From: Patescibacteria group bacterium
GTDB lineage: Bacteria; Patescibacteriota; UBA1384; 2-12-FULL-50-11
Direction: 5' to 3'
NCBI GenBank assembly: GCA_038058635.1
Contig: JBBUAP010000001.1
Span: forward strand, 13,606 to 77,605
Length of the DNA stretch: 64,000 nucleotides
The translations under genes and the position numbers were made by a program. Under the pieces are notes generated by a model. It saw only the letters and a list, made by a program, of their open reading frames with translations. It was not told the origin of the DNA and made no database searches. The stretch's first letter is position 1; each line of letters begins with the position of its first letter. Positions 2,204-15,851 of the stretch are shown piece after piece.

Positions 2204-5041
2204 CTATTCAAATTTGTAGGCCAGTTCTTCGCTGTCGAGTTTGGTTAGGTCGGCCGAGTCAGCGATTGGTTCAATCGAGCGGAGCGAGACAGTTTTAGCA
2301 AGTTCGGTCGAATGTTTTTCGATTAAATTACGCAGTTCGTCGTCACGAGTGAAATAGTGGAAACTGGCCAGTTCGCCGACTTTTAGCCCGGCTTGTTTGC
2401 GCGCTTCTTGGAGCTTACGAGCTAACTCGCGGTAACGGCCTTCACTCTGAAGCTCCGGCGTCAGCTCAGTATTGATTCTGGTCTCTTGGCCAAATTCGAC
2501 GCTCTCGACATTCATCTCGTCTCGTAAAACCTCGATCAAATCTTCTCGATTGGCCAAGTCTTGCGAGCCACCAACAATCAAGCAAGATAGCGGTTGACGC
2601 AGCGGCATCTTGGCTTCGGCCCGTTGCATATGAGCGATTGAAGCCACTTCGCGGACAGTCCGCATTACTTCAATTGTTTCTTTCTCTTGATTCAAAACCG
2701 ATTCGTCGACTGTTGGGTAATCTTCCAGATGGACTGACTCTTTCGAGCCACCCAGCTGTTGGTAAAAATACTCACCGGTGAATGGCAAAGTCGGGGCAAA
2801 GGCAATCGCTGAACGAAGCAAAACGCGCCCTAAGGTCGCCAAAGCCGCCTCGTCACCCGCAACAAACCGATCTCGGGAGCGGCGAATATACCAAGTCGAG
2901 AGATCTTCAATAAAAGGCCGAATGGCTTTGGTCGACGCTTGAAAATCGAACTTGTCCAATCCTTCGGCATATTCTTGAATTGCCTCTTCCAGTCGGGCAA
3001 TAATCCACCGATCCAGGACAGTTGGCTCGGCTGTCGAATCTTTACTCCCAGAAAAGTTAGCCACGCCGGCGTAGGTCAAATAGTATTTTAAAGCGTTGTG
3101 CCAGACATTGAGCAAGCGCGATTGCTCGCGAATATCATCTTCACTAATAGCCAAGTCTTCGCCAGCCATAATCTTTGACCCCATAAAATAGAGCCGCAGT
3201 GATTCGGCGCCGAACTTTTCAATCGTCCCGCGCGGGTCGGGATAGTTGCCGTACGACTTGCTCATCTTGCGGCCGTCGTTACCCATCAATACCCCGTTCA
3301 CAGCAACATTCTTGAAGGCAATATTTCCTTTAAGGGCATTAGATAGAACATGAAGGTAGTAAAACCAACCTCGGAGCTGTCCCGTATATTCAATAATAAA
3401 ATCTGTTGGGAAATGCGTTTCAAACTCTTCTTTGTTTTCAAAAGGATAGTGATCTTGGCCGTACGGCATCGAACCAGATTCAAACCAACAATCCAAGACT
3501 TCTTTTACCCTTTGAGCTTTTTTTCCGTTAGGTAGCGTTAGTACAACTTCGTCTATTTTAGGACGATGCAAATCTGTAATTGTTTGGCCGCTCAATTTTT
3601 CTAATTCTGCGACTGACTCTGGTACGAAGATCTCTCCGTCTTCTGTCTCCCAAACGGGTAGTGGTGTTCCCCAGTAGCGGGTACGACTAATGGACCAATC
3701 AGGGGCGTTAGCAATGTTGTGAGCGAATCTCTTGTCACCGAAATGTTTAGGAATCCAATTAATTTTCTTATTGCTCTCCAAGAGCTCGCTTCGAAGCGGT
3801 TCGATCGACATGTACCAAGAAACTTGAGCTTTATAGATTAGCGGCGTCGAACAGCGATAGCAGTGAGGATAGGAGTGAGTGATGACTTCTTCTTTGAACA
3901 GCAATCCCCTTTTCAGAAGTTCGGCTGAAATCAAGGGGTTGGCTTTTTTGTAATACATCCCCGCCCACGGCGTCACTTCGGCCACAAAATGGCCAGCTTC
4001 ATCAACTGTTTCGTGCAGTGACAAGCCAACCTGTTCGCCAAGCTTGGTATCTTCTTCACCAAAGCCCGGGGCAATATGAACAATCCCCGTGCCTTCGTCC
4101 ATCGCCACGAAGTCGGCGGCATAGACCTGAAAATCGGTTTTGGAATTAGTCGGCAAGAAATTGTAAAGCGGCTCAAACTTTTGTCCAACCAGTTTCTGGC
4201 CTTTGAAGGTTTCGAGTACTTCGAAATCGCTTTCGGAGTAACGCGGCAGGGCTTCGTGGGCTAGAATATAAAACTTTTTACCGTCAGTAACTTTTACGTA
4301 TTCGGTCTTTTCGTCCACTGCCAAGCCTAAGTTAGCTGGTAACGTCCAGGGAGTTGTCGTCCAGGCAAGTAGATACGTGTCTTGGGAAGTCATCTTAAAA
4401 GCTATCGTTACGGCCGGATCCTCAACGTCCCGGTACGAATCATCGTCCATCGTCACCTCAAACTTACTTAGGGCCGTGGCACAACGGGGACAGTACAACG
4501 AGGTTCGACGACCGCGATATATCAAACCCTTGTCGTAAAGTTGTTTGAAAACCCAGATTACTGACTCCATAAATTCCAAAGAATCGGTTCGGTAGGCGCC
4601 TGTCATATCTGCCCAACGCCCGATGTGGTCGATATACCATTTCCAGGCATCAGATACCTCACCGACATAAGCCCTACAAGCTTCAATAAACTTATCGACT
4701 CCCAGCGCTTCGATGTCTTTTTTAACTTTTAACCCTAGTTGCTTCTCAACTTGGTTTTCGGCAGGTAAGCCATGGGTGTCCCAACCCCAAATACGCCGAA
4801 CGTATTTACCTTTCATCGTTTGGTAACGAGGAACAATGTCCTTAGCAATCGAAGGTAAGAGGGTTCCGTAGTGAGGAATACCCGTTATAAACGGCGGTCC
4901 ATCGTAAAACGAAAAAGTGTTTTCCTTTGGGTTCTTGTCTAGAGATTTCTGAAAAATCTTTTGGTCTTCCCAAAACTTTAAAACTTTCTCTTCAATATCA
5001 AAAAGAGATTTTGTTTCACCGGAAAGGTCGGGCTTAGTCAT
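2204..5041 (-). CDS. ileS: isoleucyl-tRNA synthetase, type 2 (eukaryote/archaeal-like)
   Basis: 945 aa. Class I aaRS with N-terminal YDGPPFITGIPHYG (HYGH-type motif typical of type 2 IleRS) and KMSKS as KMSKSYGN. Its ATG overlaps the hisS stop by 1 nt. Confidence 0.75.
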   Translation of the reverse strand: MTKPDLSGETKSLFDIEEKVLKFWEDQKIFQKSLDKNPKENTFSFYDGPPFITGIPHYGTLLPSIAKDIVPRYQTMKGKYVRRIWGWDTHGLPAENQVEKQLGLKVKKDIEALGVDKFIEACRAYVGEVSDAWKWYIDHIGRWADMTGAYRTDSLEFMESVIWVFKQLYDKGLIYRGRRTSLYCPRCATALSKFEVTMDDDSYRDVEDPAVTIAFKMTSQDTYLLAWTTTPWTLPANLGLAVDEKTEYVKVTDGKKFYILAHEALPRYSESDFEVLETFKGQKLVGQKFEPLYNFLPTNSKTDFQVYAADFVAMDEGTGIVHIAPGFGEEDTKLGEQVGLSLHETVDEAGHFVAEVTPWAGMYYKKANPLISAELLKRGLLFKEEVITHSYPHCYRCSTPLIYKAQVSWYMSIEPLRSELLESNKKINWIPKHFGDKRFAHNIANAPDWSISRTRYWGTPLPVWETEDGEIFVPESVAELEKLSGQTITDLHRPKIDEVVLTLPNGKKAQRVKEVLDCWFESGSMPYGQDHYPFENKEEFETHFPTDFIIEYTGQLRGWFYYLHVLSNALKGNIAFKNVAVNGVLMGNDGRKMSKSYGNYPDPRGTIEKFGAESLRLYFMGSKIMAGEDLAISEDDIREQSRLLNVWHNALKYYLTYAGVANFSGSKDSTAEPTVLDRWIIARLEEAIQEYAEGLDKFDFQASTKAIRPFIEDLSTWYIRRSRDRFVAGDEAALATLGRVLLRSAIAFAPTLPFTGEYFYQQLGGSKESVHLEDYPTVDESVLNQEKETIEVMRTVREVASIAHMQRAEAKMPLRQPLSCLIVGGSQDLANREDLIEVLRDEMNVESVEFGQETRINTELTPELQSEGRYRELARKLQEARKQAGLKVGELASFHYFTRDDELRNLIEKHSTELAKTVSLRSIEPIADSADLTKLDSEELAYKFE

Positions 5042-7234: not shown

Positions 7235-8089
7235 CTAGGGGGGTGCTATTCCCAATTGAATCGCCTGCTTCAGCATCAGTTCCAAACTGGCAATTTGGAT
7301 TTTACGAACCGTGCTTGGCGACAAACCAAGTTGCTTACCGATGCTAGTCAGCGACTGACCATCAACCAGATAGTATTGAGTTACTACCTGGCGCTGGATG
7401 TCGCTCAAACAGGGGAGAAGAGAGTCGATGATCTGCCTGTCAATATTGATTTCGAAGGCCAATTCAGCTCTCTGATCGGGCAGTAAATCGCCCAATCGAC
7501 AACTTCCCTTGCCGCTACTCGAGGTGACCTCACAGTCTAACGAAACTGGTCGTCGGTTGTCCTTAAGTAAGGACATAATTATCTCCGCTTCTCTCACGGA
7601 CGGCTTGGTCGGTACCCCATCAATCTTTCTCAACATTTCTCGGCGATTGATGATCAATTCAAGGGTGGGTTCAAGCCCTTCACGATCGCAGATTCGCTCC
7701 ATTCTTTTGAGGCCGTTAACCACATAGGTTGGTAGGCGAAGCCGACAATCAGACAAATCATCGCTCGTTTCGCGATTGATCGCCTGTCTAATCCAGTAGG
7801 TTGCATAAGTCGAGAATTTGTACTTCTTTTCAACCTTGAATTTATCAATGGCCTTATTGAGGCCTTTGATCCCCCGCTGAAACCTGTCTTCCAGCTCATT
7901 ATTTGTCCGCATTGCTCTAGCAATCTTCCGAACCAGCCGAACATTGTGGTCAATGAGTATTGCCCGCGCCGCCGCTGCGGCGTCAGGATCGCCTTTCTTT
8001 AATTGCTCGAATAAAAATCTCTCTTGCTCCCGTGTCAAAAGAGGCAAGTCGAATGAGGCCTTAAGGACCTCGAGTGAGTCTGAATTCAT
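7235..8089 (-). CDS. RNA polymerase sigma-70 family factor
   Basis: Region 2 motifs DHNVRLVRKIA and STYATYWIRQAI. Region 4 HTH LTSIGKQLGLSPSTVRKI. Confidence 0.8.
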   Translation of the reverse strand: MNSDSLEVLKASFDLPLLTREQERFLFEQLKKGDPDAAAAARAILIDHNVRLVRKIARAMRTNNELEDRFQRGIKGLNKAIDKFKVEKKYKFSTYATYWIRQAINRETSDDLSDCRLRLPTYVVNGLKRMERICDREGLEPTLELIINRREMLRKIDGVPTKPSVREAEIIMSLLKDNRRPVSLDCEVTSSSGKGSCRLGDLLPDQRAELAFEINIDRQIIDSLLPCLSDIQRQVVTQYYLVDGQSLTSIGKQLGLSPSTVRKIQIASLELMLKQAIQLGIAPP

Positions 8090-8235: not shown

Positions 8236-8275
8236 TGCGGTCCCAGGGGGATTCGAACCCCCGATCTTCAGAATG
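8236..8275 (-). repeat. duplicated 3' half of tRNA-Glu (exact 40-nt copy of 8378..8417)
   Basis: tgcggtcccagggggattcgaacccccgatcttcagaatg is identical to the 3' portion of the intact tRNA-Glu 140 nt away, covering the anticodon loop through the acceptor 3' strand. Confidence 0.8.
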
Positions 8276-8290
8276 TCGCAGCAATTTACA

Positions 8291-8322
8291 TGGCGGCGTG
8301 TACGGGAGTCGAACCCGTGATC
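8291..8322 (-). pseudogene. orphan tRNA 3' fragment (T-arm, acceptor 3' strand, CCA)
   Basis: Minus strand reads GATCACGGGTTCGACTCCCGTACACGCCGCCA. This is a T-stem/loop (ACGGG-TTCGACT-CCCGT), a 7-nt acceptor strand, discriminator G and CCA. No matching 5' acceptor strand (GGCGTGT) is found nearby. Confidence 0.5.
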
Positions 8323-8379
8323 TCCTGGATGTCGTGCCTGCGGCACTCGCTCTTCGCTGGCGTTCAGAGTGAGAACCTG

Positions 8380-8453
8380 CGGTCCCAGGGGGATTCGAAC
8401 CCCCGATCTTCAGAATGAGAATCTGATGTCCTAGGCCTCTAGACGATGGGACC
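8380..8453 (-). tRNA. tRNA-Glu (anticodon CUC)
   Basis: GGTCCCATCGTCTAGAGGCCTAGGACATCAGATTCTCATTCTGAAGATCGGGGGTTCGAATCCCCCTGGGACCG. The 7-bp acceptor is perfect. Anticodon loop TTCTCAT with U33 and A37. T-loop TTCGAAT. Confidence 0.85.
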
Positions 8454-8493
8454 AAAGTAAACTTGCTCTGATAGTTTAGCTCAAAAAGTCTTC

Positions 8494-8568
8494 TTAGTCG
8501 AGCAGTTCCCTGACTTTGGCGACGAGCTCCTTGGGGGTGACTTCGATTTAAAGAAAATATCCCTGAAC
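8494..8568 (-). pseudogene. decayed copy of the response-regulator gene 3' end
   Basis: About 80% identical to the 3' end of CDS 11277..11651. Minus-strand translation is VQGYFL*IEVTPKELVAKVRELLD*, with an internal stop, versus VQGYYLKTEITPKELVEKIEVLLTSS in the intact gene. Confidence 0.6.
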
Positions 8569-8590
8569 CTAATTTCAGCGACGTCAGGAA

Positions 8591-9280
8591 CTATAGGACA
8601 TTACTGTTAAGAACCCCCCACTTCTTAAAAGAGAAGAGCTTGGCTGGCCGATAGATACTATTCTTCTGCCTGCCGACTATCTCAACGATATCGAGCGCAA
8701 TAAACTTGCGACGGAAGTTCCGCTTGTCTAGCGGTCGAGCGAGAATGATTTCGTAGAGCTCTTGGAGTTGTGGGAGGGTAAATTGCCTGGGTAGCAAGCT
8801 CGAAATGATAGTGGTGTTTATCAATTTCGATTTCAAGCTTTCAGCTGCAACCTTGATCATGTCTTTGTGGTCAAAGGCTAACTCCGGCAAGGCGGAAACC
8901 GGAAACCACTGGCCGCTTTCTGTTGAATTTATATCAGTGGCTACAGCAGGGACCAGGGCCAGAAAGGCGACGGAAATCGCCCGGCTCCGTTTATCACGAT
9001 CGGGATCGCTGAAGGTGTGGAATTGTTCAATATGAACATCTTTGACCCCTACTTTTTCACTGAGATGGCGCCTGGCCGAGGCCTCAGCCGATTCGTCAGA
9101 ACGAATAACCCCACCTGGTACGCCATGTTGATGTCGGTAGTGCGGCGGCCGGTGAACCGGCATCAGAAAAACTTGGACTTTATTTTTGAGCACACTTAAA
9201 AGCACGACATCGACGGCGGCGATTGCCACCCTGAGTCGAGCTACAGTCTCAACGAAAGATTCTTTTGATTGTTTTGTCAT
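8591..9280 (-). CDS. NUDIX hydrolase family protein with a C-terminal winged-helix-like domain (NrtR-like architecture)
   Basis: Nudix-box-like GGVIRSDESAEASARRHLSEKVGV followed by about 90 aa of C-terminal domain. 229 aa. Confidence 0.55.
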   Translation of the reverse strand: MTKQSKESFVETVARLRVAIAAVDVVLLSVLKNKVQVFLMPVHRPPHYRHQHGVPGGVIRSDESAEASARRHLSEKVGVKDVHIEQFHTFSDPDRDKRSRAISVAFLALVPAVATDINSTESGQWFPVSALPELAFDHKDMIKVAAESLKSKLINTTIISSLLPRQFTLPQLQELYEIILARPLDKRNFRRKFIALDIVEIVGRQKNSIYRPAKLFSFKKWGVLNSNVL

Positions 9281-9343
9281 CGTTTAATTGAAATATATCA
9301 TTTATAAGAACAGGGGGGCTATTCGCCCCCCTAAGGTTTTCTA

Positions 9344-10255
9344 TCAAACAACTCGGTGAACAACACGTTCACCAACGGTAACGGTCACGGTGCTACCGGC
9401 CGGCCAGTCGACACCCTTTTCGATAATGCCATCTGAGAAGATGACGCCGCCCCTGGGCATCTCAGAGGTTAGTTTCAGCAAGGACCCGACGACAACTCGT
9501 CCGGTCACGATTGTCGCGCCGGTCACCGGCGAGGGGAACGGATCGCGAACGACGAAGACTAGCTCTAAGTCGGTCGGACCCGGTAGCTGCGTCAAAAGAT
9601 GGCGCCCCCGTTCTGGGATTAGACCATCGACCATCGCCACGATTGAACGTAACCAGCCGTTGGTCCCGACGCCAGTTGAGACGATCACGCCGTCCGACGA
9701 GTGTCGTTCCTCCCGACTACCAAAGGCAATCTTGTATCGGGCCGAAATGTGATCCCGGCGGCCGATAAAGATGTCGTTGATGCCCCAGACGACTTTGTCG
9801 TCGCTCGTCGTCGCTTTGACGAACGGCAGGTCCTCGACGAGGTACTTGCCATTCTTGACGCGAGTAATGACATCGCCAACCTGAGTTGGTCCAAATGGCA
9901 TTAGGTTGCCGATGATGCTGCTGGGATCGGGATTGATTCCGAGCACCAGTTGGTTTGTGACGTATTGAGCCAGGTTGACAAACAGTCCATCCGGCCCGCA
10001 GACGATCACCAGATCGTCGTCTCGAAAGAGAAACGTCGGCAAGTCGTTCCGAGAAACGGTGGTGACCGCCAGATCATTGGGGATCTGGCGGCGGACCGTT
10101 ATCAGAGCGTCTTGGTAGGTTGTGTGTTCGTCTCGATACGGAGCGATGGAGTCGCCCTTCGTTTCGAGAATGAACTGGGCCATCCCTTCAGTGAGATGCT
10201 CCCGGATCAACTCCTCGAGCCGAGTTGGTTTCGTAACCACGACGACACGATCCAT
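9344..10255 (-). CDS. NAD kinase family protein (divergent: GPDG instead of GGDG)
   Basis: DLVIVCGPDGLF in place of the GGDGT motif. NAD-kinase C-terminal-like DGVIVSTGVGTNGW (compare DGxxxSTPTGSTAY). GC-rich. Its start is coupled to the upstream gene stop (TAA-AG-ATG). Confidence 0.5.
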   Translation of the reverse strand: MDRVVVVTKPTRLEELIREHLTEGMAQFILETKGDSIAPYRDEHTTYQDALITVRRQIPNDLAVTTVSRNDLPTFLFRDDDLVIVCGPDGLFVNLAQYVTNQLVLGINPDPSSIIGNLMPFGPTQVGDVITRVKNGKYLVEDLPFVKATTSDDKVVWGINDIFIGRRDHISARYKIAFGSREERHSSDGVIVSTGVGTNGWLRSIVAMVDGLIPERGRHLLTQLPGPTDLELVFVVRDPFPSPVTGATIVTGRVVVGSLLKLTSEMPRGGVIFSDGIIEKGVDWPAGSTVTVTVGERVVHRVV

Positions 10256-10257
10256 CT

Positions 10258-11136
10258 TTAGCCTCCTTTTCTGCCGTTACTGGTAACCGCAGCGAGTAGC
10301 TCCGTCGTCAGGGCGACCGATCCGAGTTTTCCTTCCTTGGCGGCGACCATCAGTGAGGCGGCCATCAGTTTGCCGGAGTCGATGTCGATCATTGGCTTCA
10401 GACGAAGCTCGGTAGCTTCGGCTTCCGACCCGGCAAGTGCGACCATGTTCTTGCCCTGCTCGGCGACGAACATGGAACGATCAACTTCGAGCTTGAGGTT
10501 GGTCTCAGCCTCAAAAGCTCTAACCCTTCGCTCGTTATCGGCGGCTTTGAGCCGACGCTCGTGCCGGGCAGTATCCGCCGCCGAGAGCAGACCCTCGCGC
10601 TCTTCAGAGCCGATCGCTTCGTTGACTTCATCGTCGGATGGCTCGACCGTCGAGACCGAGCAGCTTTCGATTGTGACGCCACGCGCTACCAACGAGTTGG
10701 TCTCGCCAGCGATCGCCCTACGGATCGTTTCCTCAAATTGCGGCTGAGAGGTGACGGCAGTCGAGATATCGAGCTCAAGCGCCTGGGTCCGGATTGGACC
10801 AAGAACCTGATCGATCATGCTCTGCTGGAGTAACGCCTCCCATCTGCTGCGGTAGCCACCGCTGTGGTTGTCGACGGTGAAGTCGAAAGTGCTCTTGGCA
10901 ACCTGGCCGTTAAGCCTGGCCTGAATGCAGCCACTGACGGTGATTTGCTGCTTGTCGCGCGAGTACGCTTCGACAGAAAAGTTAACAACCTGTGCAATGG
11001 TTGGAACGACGGCCACAGTGGTCATCGGGCCGATCAGTCCACCCCAGCCGATCCCTCGGTCCTGGAACGTTCCTCGACTCAGAGTGAAAACGTGGCCAGT
11101 AGCACCAGCCGCGTGAAACAGTGTGATACCAAACAT
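10258..11136 (-). CDS. SPFH/band-7 (flotillin/stomatin-like) domain protein
   Basis: PHB-domain-like N-terminal half followed by an ERRLKAADNERRVRAFEAE coiled-coil region. About 60% GC, well above the window average. SD CAGGAGG precedes the ATG. Confidence 0.45.
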   Translation of the reverse strand: MFGITLFHAAGATGHVFTLSRGTFQDRGIGWGGLIGPMTTVAVVPTIAQVVNFSVEAYSRDKQQITVSGCIQARLNGQVAKSTFDFTVDNHSGGYRSRWEALLQQSMIDQVLGPIRTQALELDISTAVTSQPQFEETIRRAIAGETNSLVARGVTIESCSVSTVEPSDDEVNEAIGSEEREGLLSAADTARHERRLKAADNERRVRAFEAETNLKLEVDRSMFVAEQGKNMVALAGSEAEATELRLKPMIDIDSGKLMAASLMVAAKEGKLGSVALTTELLAAVTSNGRKGG

Positions 11137-11212
11137 CTTAGCCTCCTGGAGAGTCTCTCCGTTTCGCTCCTACATTATGTGAAGCTACGTTAGTGTATTT
11201 ACTACACTATAT

Positions 11213-11246
11213 AAATGTATTATATACACTTACTACAGCTTGTCAA
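11213..11246 (-). promoter_or_regulatory. consensus sigma-70 promoter for the GC-rich three-gene operon
   Basis: On the minus strand: TTGACA, 16-nt spacer, TATAAT. It sits in an AT-rich 140-nt spacer, about 80 nt upstream of the ATG at 11136. Confidence 0.55.
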
Positions 11247-11276
11247 TACCCTTTCTTTAGTAAATATCCCGTAAAT

Positions 11277-11651
11277 TTAGCTGGACGTTAGCAACACTTC
11301 AATTTTCTCAACGAGCTCTTTGGGGGTGATTTCGGTTTTTAGATAGTATCCCTGAACACGATTCTTGGCTTGCTCTTTATAGTCCGGGTTGGGTAGAGCG
11401 GTGAGAATGATAATCGGGATATGTTTGGTCTCCGGCAAGGTCCGGAAAACTTTGAGAGCCCCCAGCCCACCTTGGCGAGGAAGCATCAAGTCTAGCAAAA
11501 TGATATCGGGGTTATTGTTCAAGGCGACATCAATAGCCGATAAGCCGTCCCCCGCCTCAATAACCGTAAAGTTATGATGAGTGAAGGCCTCCTTATAGAG
11601 CCAGCGCAGTTCCTCGTTATCCTCGACTAACAATATCTTTTTTTGGCTCAT
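11277..11651 (-). CDS. single-domain response regulator (CheY-like receiver)
   Basis: ILLVEDNEELRWLY...DIILLDLMLP...IPIIILTA. 124 aa with no output domain. Confidence 0.85.
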   Translation of the reverse strand: MSQKKILLVEDNEELRWLYKEAFTHHNFTVIEAGDGLSAIDVALNNNPDIILLDLMLPRQGGLGALKVFRTLPETKHIPIIILTALPNPDYKEQAKNRVQGYYLKTEITPKELVEKIEVLLTSS

Positions 11652-11660
11652 CTCAATTCA

Positions 11661-14381
11661 TCATCGTAAATCAATTAATGTCTGGGTTTTAGCCCAAGAC
11701 AGCATCATCACCCGAGTTAGTTTACGCAGCTCATCAACCAAGACAATTGACAGCGCCACCATCAAGCAGAGAACCAGCGTCGGCCAGTCCAGTGCGGTCA
11801 ACCCCAAGACGCTACTGACTGCAGGCCAGTAAAGGGCACCTAGTTGTAAAACTGAGGCGATGCCAAACATCAACAAAAGCCACTTGTTGTTAAACCGACC
11901 CATCACAAACACCGAGGCCGTCGCCGAACGACTATTAAATAAGTTAAAAAGCTGAAAGAAGACTAGCGTCGTCAGGGTGGCCGAGCGAGCGTACACAGGG
12001 CCACTAGCAAACTGTCCGTAGACAAACAGCGCCCCCAGCGCCATGACGACCGATACCAGCATCATCCGAGCGATGGCTGATTTCGAAAGAATCTGCTCGT
12101 TCGGGTTCCGGGGGGGTCGTTTCATCAGGTCCTCTTCGGCCGGCTCAACCGATAAGGCCATCGAAGTTACTCCATCGGTAACCAGATTCATCCACAATAT
12201 CTGCACCGCCAAGACCGGTAATGGCCAGCCGAGCAGAACGGCGCCGATAATGACCATGATTTCCCCCAGACTAGTGGAGACGAGGTAGTAGACGATTTTT
12301 TTAATGTTTTCCCAAATTAACCGCCCTTCGGCAATGGCTGAAACGATGCCGGTGATGTTGTCATCAAGCAGGACCATATGAGACGCCTCAACGGCGATGT
12401 CGCTACCGCCACGACCCATCGCCACACCGATGTCGGCCTTTTTCAAGGCCGGGGCGTCGTTAACGCCGTCGCCAGTCATGGCGACTAACTGACCTTGCCG
12501 TTGGAGCCGTTCAATAATGAGCAGCTTGTCTCTGGGGGTCGCCCGGGCAATGACCGATACTTTCGATAGATCATGTCCAGCGATGTCTTGAGCATGAATT
12601 ATCTCGCCTTGATCAGCCAGGCCAAGTTTGCGGGCAATGTGTGAGGCCGTCAGTAAGTGGTCGCCCGTAATCATCATCGTCCGGACGCCGGCGTCTAGGG
12701 CTAAACTAATCGCTTTTTTGGCCTCGGGACGAATCGGGTCAGCCAGCGCCATAAAACCGACCCAAGTCAGATGCTGAACTAATTTGGCATTAATACTACT
12801 GGCATCTGGGTAGTCAGCGTAGGCCAGGGCGACCAGCCGATAGCCAGATTCGGCCAGCGTATCGGCTTGGCGGGTCAGGTTGTCTCGATCGGTTGGCAAC
12901 AAGCGGCGTTTCTTGCTCCCGGCCACAAAATCGCAAAGCGCAATTAAGCGCTCCGGTGAGCCCTTGACGATAATTCGGTGATGATGATCAAACTGATGGA
13001 TTGAAGCCGAGTAGCGCAACTCTTGATCGAAGGGTATTTCTAGGAGCTCGGGATACTCCCGCTCCTCCTCAAAGGCGTAATAGCCCGCTTTGGCCGCCAC
13101 CACCGCCAGCGCTGTCTCGGTCGGGTCGGTCAGCTGTCTGGCCCGATTTTTCAGCAGATCGTCTTTGGAGATCGATGACATCGTCGCCAGGCTGGCCAGT
13201 TTTAAGATTAAATTAAGTTGTGGCACTTTAGTCTCGGCGATCTTGTCGCCTGCTTCAAAAAACGAACCGGTCAGATCGAATCCTCGGCCCGTGACAGTGT
13301 ATTCACCCCCTGGCAGGACAATCTTTTCGACCATCATCGCTCCCTCGGTCAGCGTGCCGGTTTTGTCAACGCAGAGCGTTGTGATGCTACCCAGCGTCTC
13401 CGTTGCCGAGAGCTGACGAATCAGCGAGTGGCGACGAAACAATCTCGTTAAACCGACCGAGAGCGTCACCGTTAGGGCGATCGGCAGACCTTCTGGCACG
13501 ACCGAAACCAATAGAGCTAGTGTCGTCCGAAACATCTCCAGAGCAGGCACGCCGTTAACACTCCCGATGACAAAAGAGATCATTGATAAAACGATCGCGC
13601 AGAGTAGCAGGGCGGAGCCCAATGTCTGTAACTTTTTCTGCAAGTCGCTCGGCGCTTCTTTAACACCCAATACTTCCCGGGCGATACTACCGAGCTCCGT
13701 TCCCATACCAGTTGAATTAACGACGGCGACCCCACGGCCGGTGACGACGAGCGTCGCCAGATAAATCATATTGTCCCGATCGAGCAATGCCGAGGCCGAG
13801 CCAATAATCGTGTCACGTTTGTGGGCCGGTAGCGATTCGCCCGTCAACGGCGCTTGATTAACGCGCAAGCTCCTGGCTTCAATTAAGCGGGCGTCGGCCG
13901 GGACGCGATCGCCAGCTTCAACGATAATGATGTCACCCAGTACTAAATAACGGGCGGATATTTTTTGTTCGACCGATTCGCGGATCACTCGAGCTTGGGG
14001 AGCGAGGATGCTTCGTAATTTGCTGATCGTTTGTTCGGCGCGATACTCTTCAAAGAACCCGATGACGGAGTTGGCTACTATAACTGCTAGAATCACCCCT
14101 AACTCGGTCCACTGTCGTTCGTAAAGCGAGATTGCCGAGGCGGCTAACAGTATGTAAACGAATGGGCTGTTGAGTTGACGAAATAGCAGTTTGAATGGTG
14201 ACGGTCGGTCAGTTTTTTTGAGTTCGTTGTAACCATGCGTAGTTAGTCGATGTCTGGCCTCCTGGTTGGTCAGGCCGTGATGTTCGTTACTGTGTAACTC
14301 AGTTAAAACCTGGGTCTTCGGTTGCGACCAAAAATCTTTCGGTACTGGTCGAGCATGGGTTAGGTGTATTGATACCATCAA
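11661..14381 (-). CDS. P-type cation-transporting ATPase (Ca2+/Mg2+-type, P2)
   Basis: Phosphorylation motif CVDKTGTLTEG, hinge MTGDGVNDAPALKKADIGVAMG, 10 predicted TM segments, 906 aa. Confidence 0.9.
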   Translation of the reverse strand: MMVSIHLTHARPVPKDFWSQPKTQVLTELHSNEHHGLTNQEARHRLTTHGYNELKKTDRPSPFKLLFRQLNSPFVYILLAASAISLYERQWTELGVILAVIVANSVIGFFEEYRAEQTISKLRSILAPQARVIRESVEQKISARYLVLGDIIIVEAGDRVPADARLIEARSLRVNQAPLTGESLPAHKRDTIIGSASALLDRDNMIYLATLVVTGRGVAVVNSTGMGTELGSIAREVLGVKEAPSDLQKKLQTLGSALLLCAIVLSMISFVIGSVNGVPALEMFRTTLALLVSVVPEGLPIALTVTLSVGLTRLFRRHSLIRQLSATETLGSITTLCVDKTGTLTEGAMMVEKIVLPGGEYTVTGRGFDLTGSFFEAGDKIAETKVPQLNLILKLASLATMSSISKDDLLKNRARQLTDPTETALAVVAAKAGYYAFEEEREYPELLEIPFDQELRYSASIHQFDHHHRIIVKGSPERLIALCDFVAGSKKRRLLPTDRDNLTRQADTLAESGYRLVALAYADYPDASSINAKLVQHLTWVGFMALADPIRPEAKKAISLALDAGVRTMMITGDHLLTASHIARKLGLADQGEIIHAQDIAGHDLSKVSVIARATPRDKLLIIERLQRQGQLVAMTGDGVNDAPALKKADIGVAMGRGGSDIAVEASHMVLLDDNITGIVSAIAEGRLIWENIKKIVYYLVSTSLGEIMVIIGAVLLGWPLPVLAVQILWMNLVTDGVTSMALSVEPAEEDLMKRPPRNPNEQILSKSAIARMMLVSVVMALGALFVYGQFASGPVYARSATLTTLVFFQLFNLFNSRSATASVFVMGRFNNKWLLLMFGIASVLQLGALYWPAVSSVLGLTALDWPTLVLCLMVALSIVLVDELRKLTRVMMLSWAKTQTLIDLR

Positions 14382-14409
14382 TACCAGGATATCCTAAATC
14401 AGTCACAGC

Positions 14410-14520
14410 GGGGAATTACTGAATAACTAAATTACGAAATTACTGAATTAAAAGCTTCCACAATTCAGTAGCTTCGAACGAAGTGAGAAGCGAGCGAAGC
14501 GACATTCAGTAATTGTATAA
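14410..14520. promoter_or_regulatory. array of ATTACTGAAT / ATTCAGTAAT dyad repeats upstream of the ATPase operon
   Basis: ATTACTGAAT occurs twice and its reverse complement ATTCAGTAAT twice within 110 nt, immediately upstream of the ATPase start. Confidence 0.4.
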
Positions 14521-14534
14521 TTTAGTAATTATCT

Positions 14535-14702
14535 TCAGTTTGATGTGGTTTTTTGCTCGGCGTCTTCAAGCTGGTCGGCATTGAAAGAGTCGCCAGTATT
14601 ATTGGTCTCGTTTTTTGTCGTCGTCTTCCGATCCGTCATCACGCCGAGAATGATCAACACCACGACCAAAACTACCGCCACGCCATAAAAGACTTTCTTC
14701 AT
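14535..14702 (-). CDS. small membrane protein (hypothetical)
   Basis: MKKVFYGVAVVLVVVLIILGVM is a single TM helix followed by a polar tail. Weak support. Confidence 0.3.
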   Translation of the reverse strand: MKKVFYGVAVVLVVVLIILGVMTDRKTTTKNETNNTGDSFNADQLEDAEQKTTSN

Positions 14703-14800
14703 GCTACTGACACTAGACTTGGGTGGAATGGTAGTCAAGACCATCTGCCGAAGAAGGATTGCCTTGATAAATATTTAGCTCAAATTTTGGGTCTAGGGTG

Positions 14801-14829
14801 TTGACTTTTTAACGATTATATGGTATAGT
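14801..14829 (+). promoter_or_regulatory. sigma-70 promoter for the plus-strand GC-rich gene
   Basis: TTGACT, 17-nt spacer, TATAGT. A 130-nt leader follows before the SD AGGAG and the ATG at 14960. Confidence 0.5.
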
Positions 14830-14959
14830 CATGACGCTAATACGAGGTATTGGTGGTCGTGGTTGTACCGAACAGCCAAAGAAATCAGTGCGTTACCTTC
14901 GGGTAGCGGCACAAACGGGAGGGATGTCACCCGGGAAAGACATCAGGAGCACGTTTACA

Positions 14960-15718
14960 ATGAAAACAACGATATGGTGGGTCGGTCTGACCCTTTTCGT
15001 CCTCGGCACCCTTGGAGCATTTGCCCCTCCGGAGAACTATCCGGGTTGGTGGGCCAAGGCGTGGGGAATGACCTTCCCCTATCAAACGGACGCGACGAAG
15101 ACGCAGTCGCATGATCCGGCCGTCGCCGGCCAGATTTGGACCGGTCGCGGACTCAAGGGAGTTGGCGGGAACACCCGTCTCGAGCTCGAACAGCCGGCGC
15201 TCCGCAAAGAAGCGGCAGCCGGCGACGCAAGGGTCGATGGCAGGGCGCAGCATCGAGTCTATCTCGTCCTCGTGGCGGTGATTGGACTCTTCCTGATGTA
15301 CCTCGGTCTTCGTCAAGAGGATCGTGAGCGTGAGGAAAGACGGTTTGAGCGGCTCGAGGGACAGCTGCCGAACCAAACCACGCCCGACAGCACTAAGACA
15401 TCGGTGCCCTCACAACCGACAGTCTCCCAAGGCAAGAGCACACCTCTCGAGCCGATGAACGACGATCCCGAGCCTAACTGGTGGCAGCTTCTATGGGCGC
15501 CTTGGCGGCGCACTTCACGCGAGCGCCAGTCCGTGATCGCAGCCCCGACAGAGCCGATCGATATCAACATCGTCGTTGAGTCGTTCGACGGAGACAAGTC
15601 GAAAGCACGACATGTGCTGACGGCGAGCTTGCCGGCAATGACCGTTCATTCGGTCAAAGCCCACCTCAGGGTGGGTACCAACGACACCGTCCAGGAGATG
15701 GGTCTCGACGTCCACTAA
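14960..15718 (+). CDS. hypothetical membrane protein, GC-rich (probably foreign)
   Basis: Start at the ATG at 14960 with SD AGGAGC 9 nt upstream, within ORF 14831..15718. Two TM helices. About 62% GC with G/C-ending codons. It is the only plus-strand gene in a minus-strand block. Confidence 0.45.
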   Translation: MKTTIWWVGLTLFVLGTLGAFAPPENYPGWWAKAWGMTFPYQTDATKTQSHDPAVAGQIWTGRGLKGVGGNTRLELEQPALRKEAAAGDARVDGRAQHRVYLVLVAVIGLFLMYLGLRQEDREREERRFERLEGQLPNQTTPDSTKTSVPSQPTVSQGKSTPLEPMNDDPEPNWWQLLWAPWRRTSRERQSVIAAPTEPIDINIVVESFDGDKSKARHVLTASLPAMTVHSVKAHLRVGTNDTVQEMGLDVH

Positions 15719-15770: not shown

Positions 15771-15780
15771 TACCTATTTG

Positions 15781-15851
15781 TTCCGGGACTTGGATTCGAA
15801 CCAAGGTTGCCAGGCTCAGAACCTGGAGGCCTACCACTAGCCGATCCCGGA
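15781..15851 (-). tRNA. tRNA-Gln (anticodon CUG)
   Basis: TCCGGGATCGGCTAGTGGTAGGCCTCCAGGTTCTGAGCCTGGCAACCTTGGTTCGAATCCAAGTCCCGGAA. Perfect acceptor. Anticodon loop TTCTGAG. Confidence 0.85.

Follow-up and report, generated by a model that had tools for sequence, protein, structure and literature searches.

A putative NrtR-controlled SPFH and NAD-kinase-like gene module inserted at the 3' end of a response-regulator gene in a Saccharibacteria-type genome

In a 64-kb stretch of a Saccharibacteria-type genome (Patescibacteria group bacterium, GenBank assembly GCA_038058635.1, contig JBBUAP010000001.1; hereafter the window), three minus-strand genes encoding an SPFH/Band-7 protein, a protein with a NAD kinase fold, and a Nudix/winged-helix regulator of the NrtR family occupy a cassette of ~2.8 kb (~11357 to 8569) between a response-regulator gene and a tRNA-Glu gene. 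We favor, with moderate confidence, the interpretation that this cassette is an old, integrase-less insertion carrying an accessory, mobile, NrtR-controlled module of NAD(P) metabolism. Each component belongs to a known family, and it is the combination that appears to be new. The pairing of an SPFH gene with an NADK2-type gene, marked by a family-wide variant of the GGDG motif and placed under NrtR-type control, appears to be undescribed: the searchable literature yielded no description of an SPFH/NAD kinase pairing, and likewise no report of a NAD kinase in Patescibacteria or of a regulon combining NrtR and a NAD kinase, while a broader search that also took in Band-7 and Nudix proteins brought up unrelated papers only.

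Insertion into a response-regulator gene

Comparison of the window with loci and contigs from other genomes and metagenomes (designated by L-numbers) reveals both occupied and empty versions of this site. L009, a related Saccharibacteria contig found in a scan of a genome collection, has flanks of ~80% nucleotide identity to the window and the same gene order (ATPase, response regulator, SPFH, kinase-like, NrtR, tRNA-Glu, sigma factor, 296-aa protein, HisRS). L034, a metagenome contig slightly more distant than L009 (81% amino-acid identity to the window in the ATPase), lacks the trio: its order is ATPase, response regulator, thymidine kinase, tRNA-Glu, sigma factor, 296-aa protein. An earlier interpretation of the same DNA, made from the letters alone (the sequence-only reading), had proposed horizontal acquisition of a three-gene island at a tRNA site and suggested synteny with relatives as a check; L034 provides that check.

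The cassette is bracketed by two versions of a response-regulator 3' end, detected as a 54-nt direct repeat of 81% identity (8515-8568 versus 11304-11357), one copy lying within the functional gene and the other in a remnant next to the tRNA. The remnant translates as VQGYFL*IEVTPKELVAKVRELLD*, and its C-terminal part matches the response-regulator C-terminus of L034 (...KELVAKARELVETG), not the current one of the window. The working response-regulator genes of the window and L009 end ...KELVEKIEVLLTSS and have in common the C-terminus ...ELVEKIEVLLTSS, unlike L034, which ends ...ELVAKARELVETG; in the window, the last ~18 codons (the 11304-11357 repeat and the sequence downstream of it) are not of the ancestral C-terminus type. 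Because the remnant is of the L034 type and the working 3' end differs from it, the cassette would have arrived with its own response-regulator-like 3' end, displacing the original, which has since gained a stop codon. In L009 the same remnant has decayed further.

The insertion position is also shared by L033, which derives from the same species as L009 (98.8% identity). The insertion is not recent, since a second species (L009/L033) has it at the same position, and its distribution indicates an event that probably predates the split of the window and L009 lineages and postdates their split from L034. A scan for open reading frames (ORFs) and Pfam domains between the repeats found just the three cassette genes, and no integrase or other mobility gene.

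Base composition supplies a further line of evidence. Across the 53 long ORFs of the window (mean GC 0.501±0.035; mean GC at third codon positions, GC3, 0.541±0.055), the SPFH gene (GC 0.582, GC3 0.669) and the kinase-like gene (GC 0.567, GC3 0.664) lie about two standard deviations over the mean, whereas the NrtR gene is ordinary (GC 0.491, GC3 0.530), so that the GC richness originally ascribed to all three genes holds for the first two. The pair also exceeds its flanks in GC in 13 of 16 other loci (pair ~0.57-0.60, flanks 0.44-0.57); the excess therefore moves with the module and is not special to the window genome. Flanking genes vary from locus to locus, and other Saccharibacteria hold the pair in unrelated contexts. 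Horizontal acquisition is thus supported by the empty site, the direct repeats, the GC excess of the pair, and the differing flanks.

The target, on the other hand, was not the one first proposed. The repeats that flank the cassette come from the response-regulator gene, and an intact tRNA-Glu sits outside them; integration was therefore not tRNA-targeted, and a tRNA-targeted event was rejected in favor of the response-regulator 3' end. Similarly, of the tRNA fragments and decayed duplicate that had been thought to bound the island, the duplicate does so; the fragments exist, but past the intact tRNA-Glu as seen from the cassette. The arrangement resembles genomic islands that target gene 3' ends, in that the repeats derive from the target 3' end, the gene is restored by island DNA, a relative retains the empty site, and base composition is foreign. 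It differs from them in lacking an integrase, in measuring only 2.8 kb, in being shared already by two species, and in having a protein-coding gene, not the neighboring tRNA, as its target.

Several features of the surrounding DNA deserve mention in their own right. The thymidine kinase gene (2346-3020; Pfam TK, 2.9e-25) that separates the response regulator from tRNA-Glu in L034 is without a homologue in both the window and L009, and L009 seems to keep a remnant of the L034-type thymidine kinase terminator region. Upstream of the response regulator, and separated from it by 9 nt, is a putative P-type ATPase-like ORF (11661-14381, 906 aa); this pairing is kept in L009, L033, L034 and L035, with no histidine kinase in view nearby. 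The plus-strand ORF 14831-15718 (295 aa), beside tRNA-Gln (15780-15851), is as GC-rich as the two cassette genes, with the top GC of the window (0.593; GC3 0.659). Neither Pfam nor PHROG gives a match to this ORF, which may likewise be foreign.

Beyond the intact tRNA-Glu, the segment 8236-8275 reproduces 40 nt of the 3' part of the window's own tRNA-Glu exactly, and a second tRNA-like piece, 8292-8331, matches the tRNA-Glu of the L009 type; an Rfam search of this region gave nothing at gathering score besides the intact tRNA. L009 contains further tRNA pieces (9800-10130), broken up by GC-rich hairpins, and the sigma-70 gene of the window (7235-8089) has just 26-30% identity to the sigma genes at the same position in L009 and L034. 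The tRNA-Glu 3' end looks like a second, independent replacement hot-spot, apart from the cassette. Finally, the window and L009 are 100% identical over a 953-nt patch (window 8868-9820) that runs from the 3' half of the kinase-like gene through the intergenic hairpin into the 5' part of the NrtR gene; the surroundings are only 77-90% identical, and L033 lacks the identical patch. Either two Saccharibacteria species recombined here very recently, or the co-assembly behind L009 produced a chimera.

The SPFH protein and its kinase-like partner

The first two cassette genes are translationally coupled in the TAA-AG-ATG arrangement noted previously (junction TAAAGATG), and their association extends far beyond the window. 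In all 31 loci with upstream DNA to read, the kinase-like gene has an SPFH gene directly in front of it, and a Band_7 gene occupies the same position in each of three distant family members that were looked up; in one chloroflexotal protein (P0186, 574 aa) the two are naturally fused. Strict adjacency, translational coupling, and gene fusion are classical signs of physical or tight functional partnership, and on these grounds we infer that the two proteins are dedicated functional or physical partners.

Homologues of the kinase-like protein fall into 3397 clusters at 90% identity. Most come from Patescibacteria; bins labelled Verrucomicrobiae, Planctomycetota, Gammaproteobacteria, and Chloroflexota contribute others. 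An exhaustive profile search extends the family to 252 clusters at 50% identity (E up to 1e-30), and a strict-pattern scan found the family in only 24 of 185,579 species genomes. Conservation of the proteins between phyla is very high (~60%). The search for the trio in other genomes thus returned a pair that is widespread and always together, joined by an adjacent NrtR-like gene (downstream, upstream on the same strand, or divergent) in only 13 of 28 non-redundant loci. No fourth gene besides NrtR recurs around the pair in a clustering of neighbors, which was used only qualitatively because ORF picking was crude and clusters were contaminated by GC-rich antisense ORFs.

The identities first assigned to the three products (SPFH, NAD-kinase-like, and Nudix with an NrtR winged helix) are borne out. 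The SPFH assignment rests on a PF01145 match of 38.5 bits, above the gathering cut-off of 23.6. Its AF2 model (pLDDT 82.7) consists of an SPFH domain, a helix of ~80 residues (169-250), and a short C-terminal part, for which Foldseek returned HflK/C, erlin, prohibitin, flotillin, and vault MVP as best matches, along with stomatin; a profile search against PDB sequences gave chance matches only, so the relatives were recovered by fold. HflK/C, erlin, prohibitin, flotillin, stomatin, and the vault protein are ring- or cage-forming assemblies, and SPFH proteins act as membrane scaffolds for proteases and channels. The modeled protein has the architecture of such a cage-former, an SPFH domain followed by a long coiled-coil helix. 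No N-terminal membrane anchor is evident, although no dedicated transmembrane predictor was run: the N-terminus is modeled as beta strands, and the maximum 19-residue Kyte-Doolittle hydropathy (1.1-1.7) falls in a core strand of the SPFH domain. The pair invites comparison with HflK/C-FtsH, QmcA-YbbJ/NfeD, and stomatin-STOPP, which likewise combine an SPFH domain, a long coiled-coil helix, and a C-terminal cap with a tight operon encoding a dedicated partner. In contrast to these systems, the partner in the cassette is a predicted soluble nucleotide kinase rather than a protease or NfeD, the SPFH protein has no evident N-terminal anchor, and the partners are sometimes fused.

The second protein has a two-domain NAD kinase fold (AF2 model, pLDDT 86.5). 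Every significant Foldseek match in the PDB is a NAD kinase, headed by human NADK2 (7r4l, E 2e-20, TM 0.76) and followed by bacterial NAD kinases, and the PDB profile search gives the same order (human NADK2, E 1.2e-13; bacterial enzymes, E 2e-5 or weaker). As first observed, GPDG replaces the catalytic GGDG motif: CGPDG is invariant in 27 close homologues, with the Asp kept, and across the 150 best family representatives the motif reads G(Q/P/R)DG, just two having GGDG. Other motifs align with those of NADK2, including a nearly invariant N160 and an invariant D161 that form an NE/D-type motif. The glycine-rich conserved region II (SSSG..STGVGSxGW) is kept as well, and S187 and W201 are invariant where canonical NAD kinases have Asp and Tyr, a substitution described as the C5orf33/NADK2 signature (Ohashi et al., PMC3535332). 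The N(T/S)DP loop that constitutes motif 1 of the NADK2/C5orf33-NADK3 clade (PMC3535332) is matched approximately only, NPDP standing for the NTDP of NADK2 with Pro in place of Thr/Ser.

These features set the family apart from both of its nearest counterparts. With human NADK2 (C5orf33; PDB 7r4j, 7n29) and plant NADK3 the cassette protein shares the two-domain fold, NADK2 being the top match in both sequence (E 1e-13) and fold, and with human NADK2 it further shares an N-terminal helical segment, an N-x-D-P loop, the NE/D-type motif, and the Ser/Trp pair. It differs in having only ~20% identity to NADK2, in its G(P/Q/R)DG motif, and in its length (303 aa, without extra length, versus 442 residues in NADK2 with a 'C5orf33 additional region'), as well as in being bacterial, always encoded behind an SPFH gene, and of predicted activity only. 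With canonical NadK/PpnK (PF01513, PF20143) it shares the fold and the position of the catalytic Asp, but it has no Pfam match, NCBIfam scores ~10-fold under the cut-offs, and an altered GGDG; moreover, canonical NadK is universal, whereas this kinase is accessory and patchy. A tblastn search of the 64-kb window and the compared loci only, with an E. coli NadK query, found no canonical nadK. The bacterial family might represent a prokaryotic sister group of the mitochondrial NADK2/plant NADK3 clade.

An NrtR-type regulator and its putative operators

The third gene encodes the Nudix plus winged-helix layout that had been recognized as NrtR-like (PF21906, NrtR_WHD, 6.8e-21; PF00293, NUDIX, 2.5e-11). 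The NCBIfam NrtR equivalog model scores 129.6 bits, under its cut-off of 400, the Nudix box is degenerate by eye (RHLSEK versus the consensus REUXEE), and the best PDB matches are BtAraR (1.6e-30) and 3gz5 (deposited as a MutT/nudix family protein; 8.7e-26).

The TTGACA-16-TATAAT promoter reported for the cassette is indeed perfect, being the sole 12/12 consensus match in the scanned interval 8300-11700, and its TATAAT is kept in L009. Two 21-bp palindromes of the form TAAGTGTA-N5-TACACTTA, 22 bp apart, overlap this promoter. They are the sole AGTGTA-N5-TACACT matches (two mismatches or fewer) in the 64 kb, and each contains GT-N7-AC, the core of the 21-bp palindromes that serve as NrtR sites (Rodionov et al. 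2008, PMC2330246). The same palindrome occurs in ~20 of 28 loci, some of them without an adjacent NrtR gene; it precedes either the SPFH gene, by no more than ~150 nt, or an NrtR-SPFH operon. The 29 sites collected, nearly all within 150 nt upstream of an SPFH gene, yield the consensus TAAGTGTATAnnnTACACTTA, against ~1 chance match expected in the ~449 kb scanned (our own calculation).

The operator is not confined to the SPFH/kinase pair. In L029, two motif copies precede a two-gene operon, the first gene of which is NMN-adenylyltransferase/Nudix-like (NCBIfam matches far under cut-off), while the second firmly encodes a phosphoribosyltransferase of the NAMPT type (PRK09198, 604 bits, plus a NAMPT_N domain). 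The conserved operator and this salvage operon together place the SPFH/kinase operon in an NrtR-type regulon in Patescibacteria, although no NAD synthesis or salvage gene lies under the operator within the 64-kb window itself. The arrangement resembles characterized NrtR regulons (PMC2330246) in its Nudix-like, winged-helix regulator, in a 21-bp operator with GT-N7-AC overlapping the promoter, and, in one related genome (L029), in co-regulated NAD salvage genes. It differs in that Patescibacteria are not covered in that study, which mentions neither a NAD kinase (0 occurrences) nor an SPFH gene, and the ADP-ribose effector is assigned here by analogy. In L007/L008, a second operator copy (at 9019) lies downstream of the kinase gene and precedes a PP2C phosphatase gene, a protein-kinase-like gene, and two unknown genes (9235-15624), with a NAPRTase gene further on, which suggests further regulon members.

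The trio had been described as one transcription unit, with a 64-nt gap before the third gene. The gap is real (63 nt), but it contains a 9-bp GC-rich hairpin (Table 1), and an equivalent hairpin followed by a T-run is found in four other lineages (L002, L010, L013, L026); a single three-gene transcript was rejected on account of this conserved terminator-like element. L010 and L013 additionally have an operator-like half-site before the NrtR gene. The trio probably comprises two transcription units, the coupled SPFH/kinase operon and the NrtR gene.

Table 1. Features of the cassette and its borders in the window
Feature	Position	Strand	Evidence
Single-domain response-regulator gene, 124 aa	11277..11651	-	Pfam Response_reg 1.1e-17
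SPFH/Band-7 gene, 292 aa	10258..11136	-	Pfam PF01145
NAD-kinase-fold gene, NADK2/C5orf33 type, 303 aa	9344..10255	-	PDB profile and Foldseek matches
NrtR-family regulator gene, 229 aa	8591..9280	-	Pfam NrtR_WHD and NUDIX
Sigma-70-type promoter TTGACA-16-TATAAT of the SPFH/kinase operon	11219..11246	-	12/12 consensus
NrtR-type operator 1, TAAGTGTATATAATACATTTA on gene strand, overlapping the -10 box	11212..11232	.	GT-N7-AC core
NrtR-type operator 2, ATAGTGTAGTAAATACACTAA, perfect palindrome just downstream of the -10 box	11190..11210	.	Palindrome scan
GC-rich hairpin, terminator-like with weak T tail, between kinase and NrtR genes	9311..9333	-	
Inner direct-repeat copy inside the functional response-regulator 3' end (left junction of cassette)	11304..11357	-	Repeat search and alignment
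Decayed original response-regulator 3' end (right junction of cassette)	8478..8572	-	Repeat match
Intact tRNA-Glu(CTC), neighbor of the cassette	8379..8453	-	ARAGORN; Rfam 63.5 bits
Two tRNA-Glu 3'-part fragments beyond the intact tRNA	8236..8331	-	

Proposed function and alternative readings

In the mechanism that we propose, an insertion of ~2.8 kb would have entered the response-regulator 3' end, bringing a replacement end and leaving the original to decay beside tRNA-Glu. The module it carried would consist of a two-gene operon, encoding an apparently anchor-less SPFH protein and a homologue of NADK2-type kinases, and a separately terminated gene for an NrtR-family repressor. The SPFH oligomer may scaffold or enclose the kinase as a physical complex, and the kinase is predicted, from its fold and conserved motifs, to phosphorylate NAD(H) or a very close NAD-derived nucleotide. 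The putative repressor would bind the two palindromes at and just past the -10 box, thereby blocking the promoter, and ADP-ribose (a product of NAD cleavage) would release it, as in characterized NrtRs. Consumption of NAD would then induce the pair and NAD salvage together, coupling NADP supply to NAD turnover. A more specific version is tentative and, in our estimate, doubtful: an apparently anchor-less SPFH cage or ring would surround an NADK2-type kinase and, responding to ADP-ribose, compartmentalize or gate the 2'-phosphorylation of NAD(H) or of an NAD-derived nucleotide. This would constitute an unrecognized SPFH-client pair comparable to HflK/C-FtsH, with a kinase family that might be sister to mitochondrial NADK2 and plant NADK3.

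A number of observations weigh against this NAD(P)-module interpretation. Pfam assigns no family to the kinase-like protein at E up to 0.01, and its NCBIfam NAD kinase matches are weak (best 30.7 bits versus a cut-off of 309; ~30 bits versus cut-offs of at least 211). The altered phosphate-binding loop means that donor or substrate may differ from ATP and NAD. The best PDB sequence match of the regulator, BtAraR, is an arabinose-responsive member of the NrtR family, so ADP-ribose is a presumed effector. In phyla other than Patescibacteria, the NrtR gene and the operator are often both missing from the pair's locus (L001, L004, L018, L028). The complex itself is an extrapolation from gene-level evidence.

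The sequence-only reading had considered NAD/ADP-ribose-linked metabolism or signalling, and possibly defence. The first of these gained ground from the NrtR-type operator and from NAD genes under the same operator elsewhere. Genes related to NAD or ADP-ribose also occur near the pair in individual loci: NADAR and Nudix genes in L002, a NAPRTase gene in L007, a TIR protein gene in L004, and, in the chloroflexotal L036 (same contig as L027; 1-6471), genes for a SLOG-domain protein, an NrtR-like regulator, an ADP-ribosylglycohydrolase, and a 213-aa unknown protein preceding the SPFH::kinase fusion gene. As anecdotal evidence, such neighbors fit a NAD theme.

Some of the same neighborhoods can be read as signs of conflict. 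In that case the pair would be an anti-phage or counter-defence module that senses NAD cleavage or ADP-ribose and converts or depletes NAD or a nucleotide signal, with the SPFH oligomer as sensor or membrane effector. The accessory, patchy, and compositionally foreign character of the pair and its variable contexts would suit such a role, as would its position between a TIR/SEFIR-AAA gene and BREX genes on a Planctomycetota contig (L004), the SLOG-domain and ADP-ribosylglycohydrolase genes of the Chloroflexota locus, and the NADAR and Nudix genes upstream in L002. Yet an obvious defence island is present in only one of ~30 contexts (a plain count), neither the SPFH nor the kinase protein matches PADLOC-DB v2 or PHROG, the third protein has only a weak Nudix match (PDC-S07, 5.6e-5), and the kinase profile has no confirmed match in 2.9 million viral contigs. 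Conservation of ~60% across phyla is unusual for arms-race genes, and in Patescibacteria the operator common to the pair and to NAD salvage genes fits metabolic control. We regard a conflict role as distinctly unlikely, and the earlier suggestion of defence as almost unsupported. Another alternative, which we judge unlikely, concerns the reaction itself: the kinase-like protein could phosphorylate a different substrate (ADP-ribose, NAADP-type or other dinucleotides, or a lipid), or could be a non-catalytic, nucleotide-binding partner of the SPFH protein. Replacement of the second GGDG glycine in nearly all of the 150 best representatives and the missing Pfam NAD_kinase match point in this direction, and SPFH proteins usually partner membrane or proteolytic clients, not metabolic kinases. 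Against it stand the invariant catalytic Asp, NE/D-type motif, and NADK2-specific Ser/Trp (PMC3535332), the restriction of all significant structural matches to NAD kinases, and the operator that ties the pair to NAD genes. A third view dispenses with the insertion altogether, treating the trio as ancestral housekeeping genes (the lineage's own NAD kinase), the composition as noise, and L034 as having lost the trio. The same three genes do occupy the same position in L009/L033, the NrtR gene is compositionally ordinary, and other window genes, such as that at 14831-15718, are as GC-rich. Loss in L034, however, would not produce the decayed L034-type response-regulator copy that flanks the trio, and this view is also at odds with the empty site of L034, the low frequency of the family in the strict-pattern scan, the unrelated contexts of the pair in other Saccharibacteria, and its GC excess in most of the loci compared; we consider it very improbable.

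If an accessory, NrtR-controlled NAD(P) module is the correct interpretation, its implications extend from the locus to the protein families involved. The locus is an example of a small integrase-less cassette that enters a reduced genome by way of a replaced 3' end of a resident gene. A nucleotide kinase would be a new type of client for SPFH proteins, in a tractable two-protein system. The kinase family, which is large, missed by Pfam NAD-kinase models, and nearest to mitochondrial NADK2, may mark a bacterial counterpart of that enzyme. In Patescibacteria, whose cofactor metabolism is poorly understood, an operator common to NAD-salvage genes ties the pair to NAD turnover.

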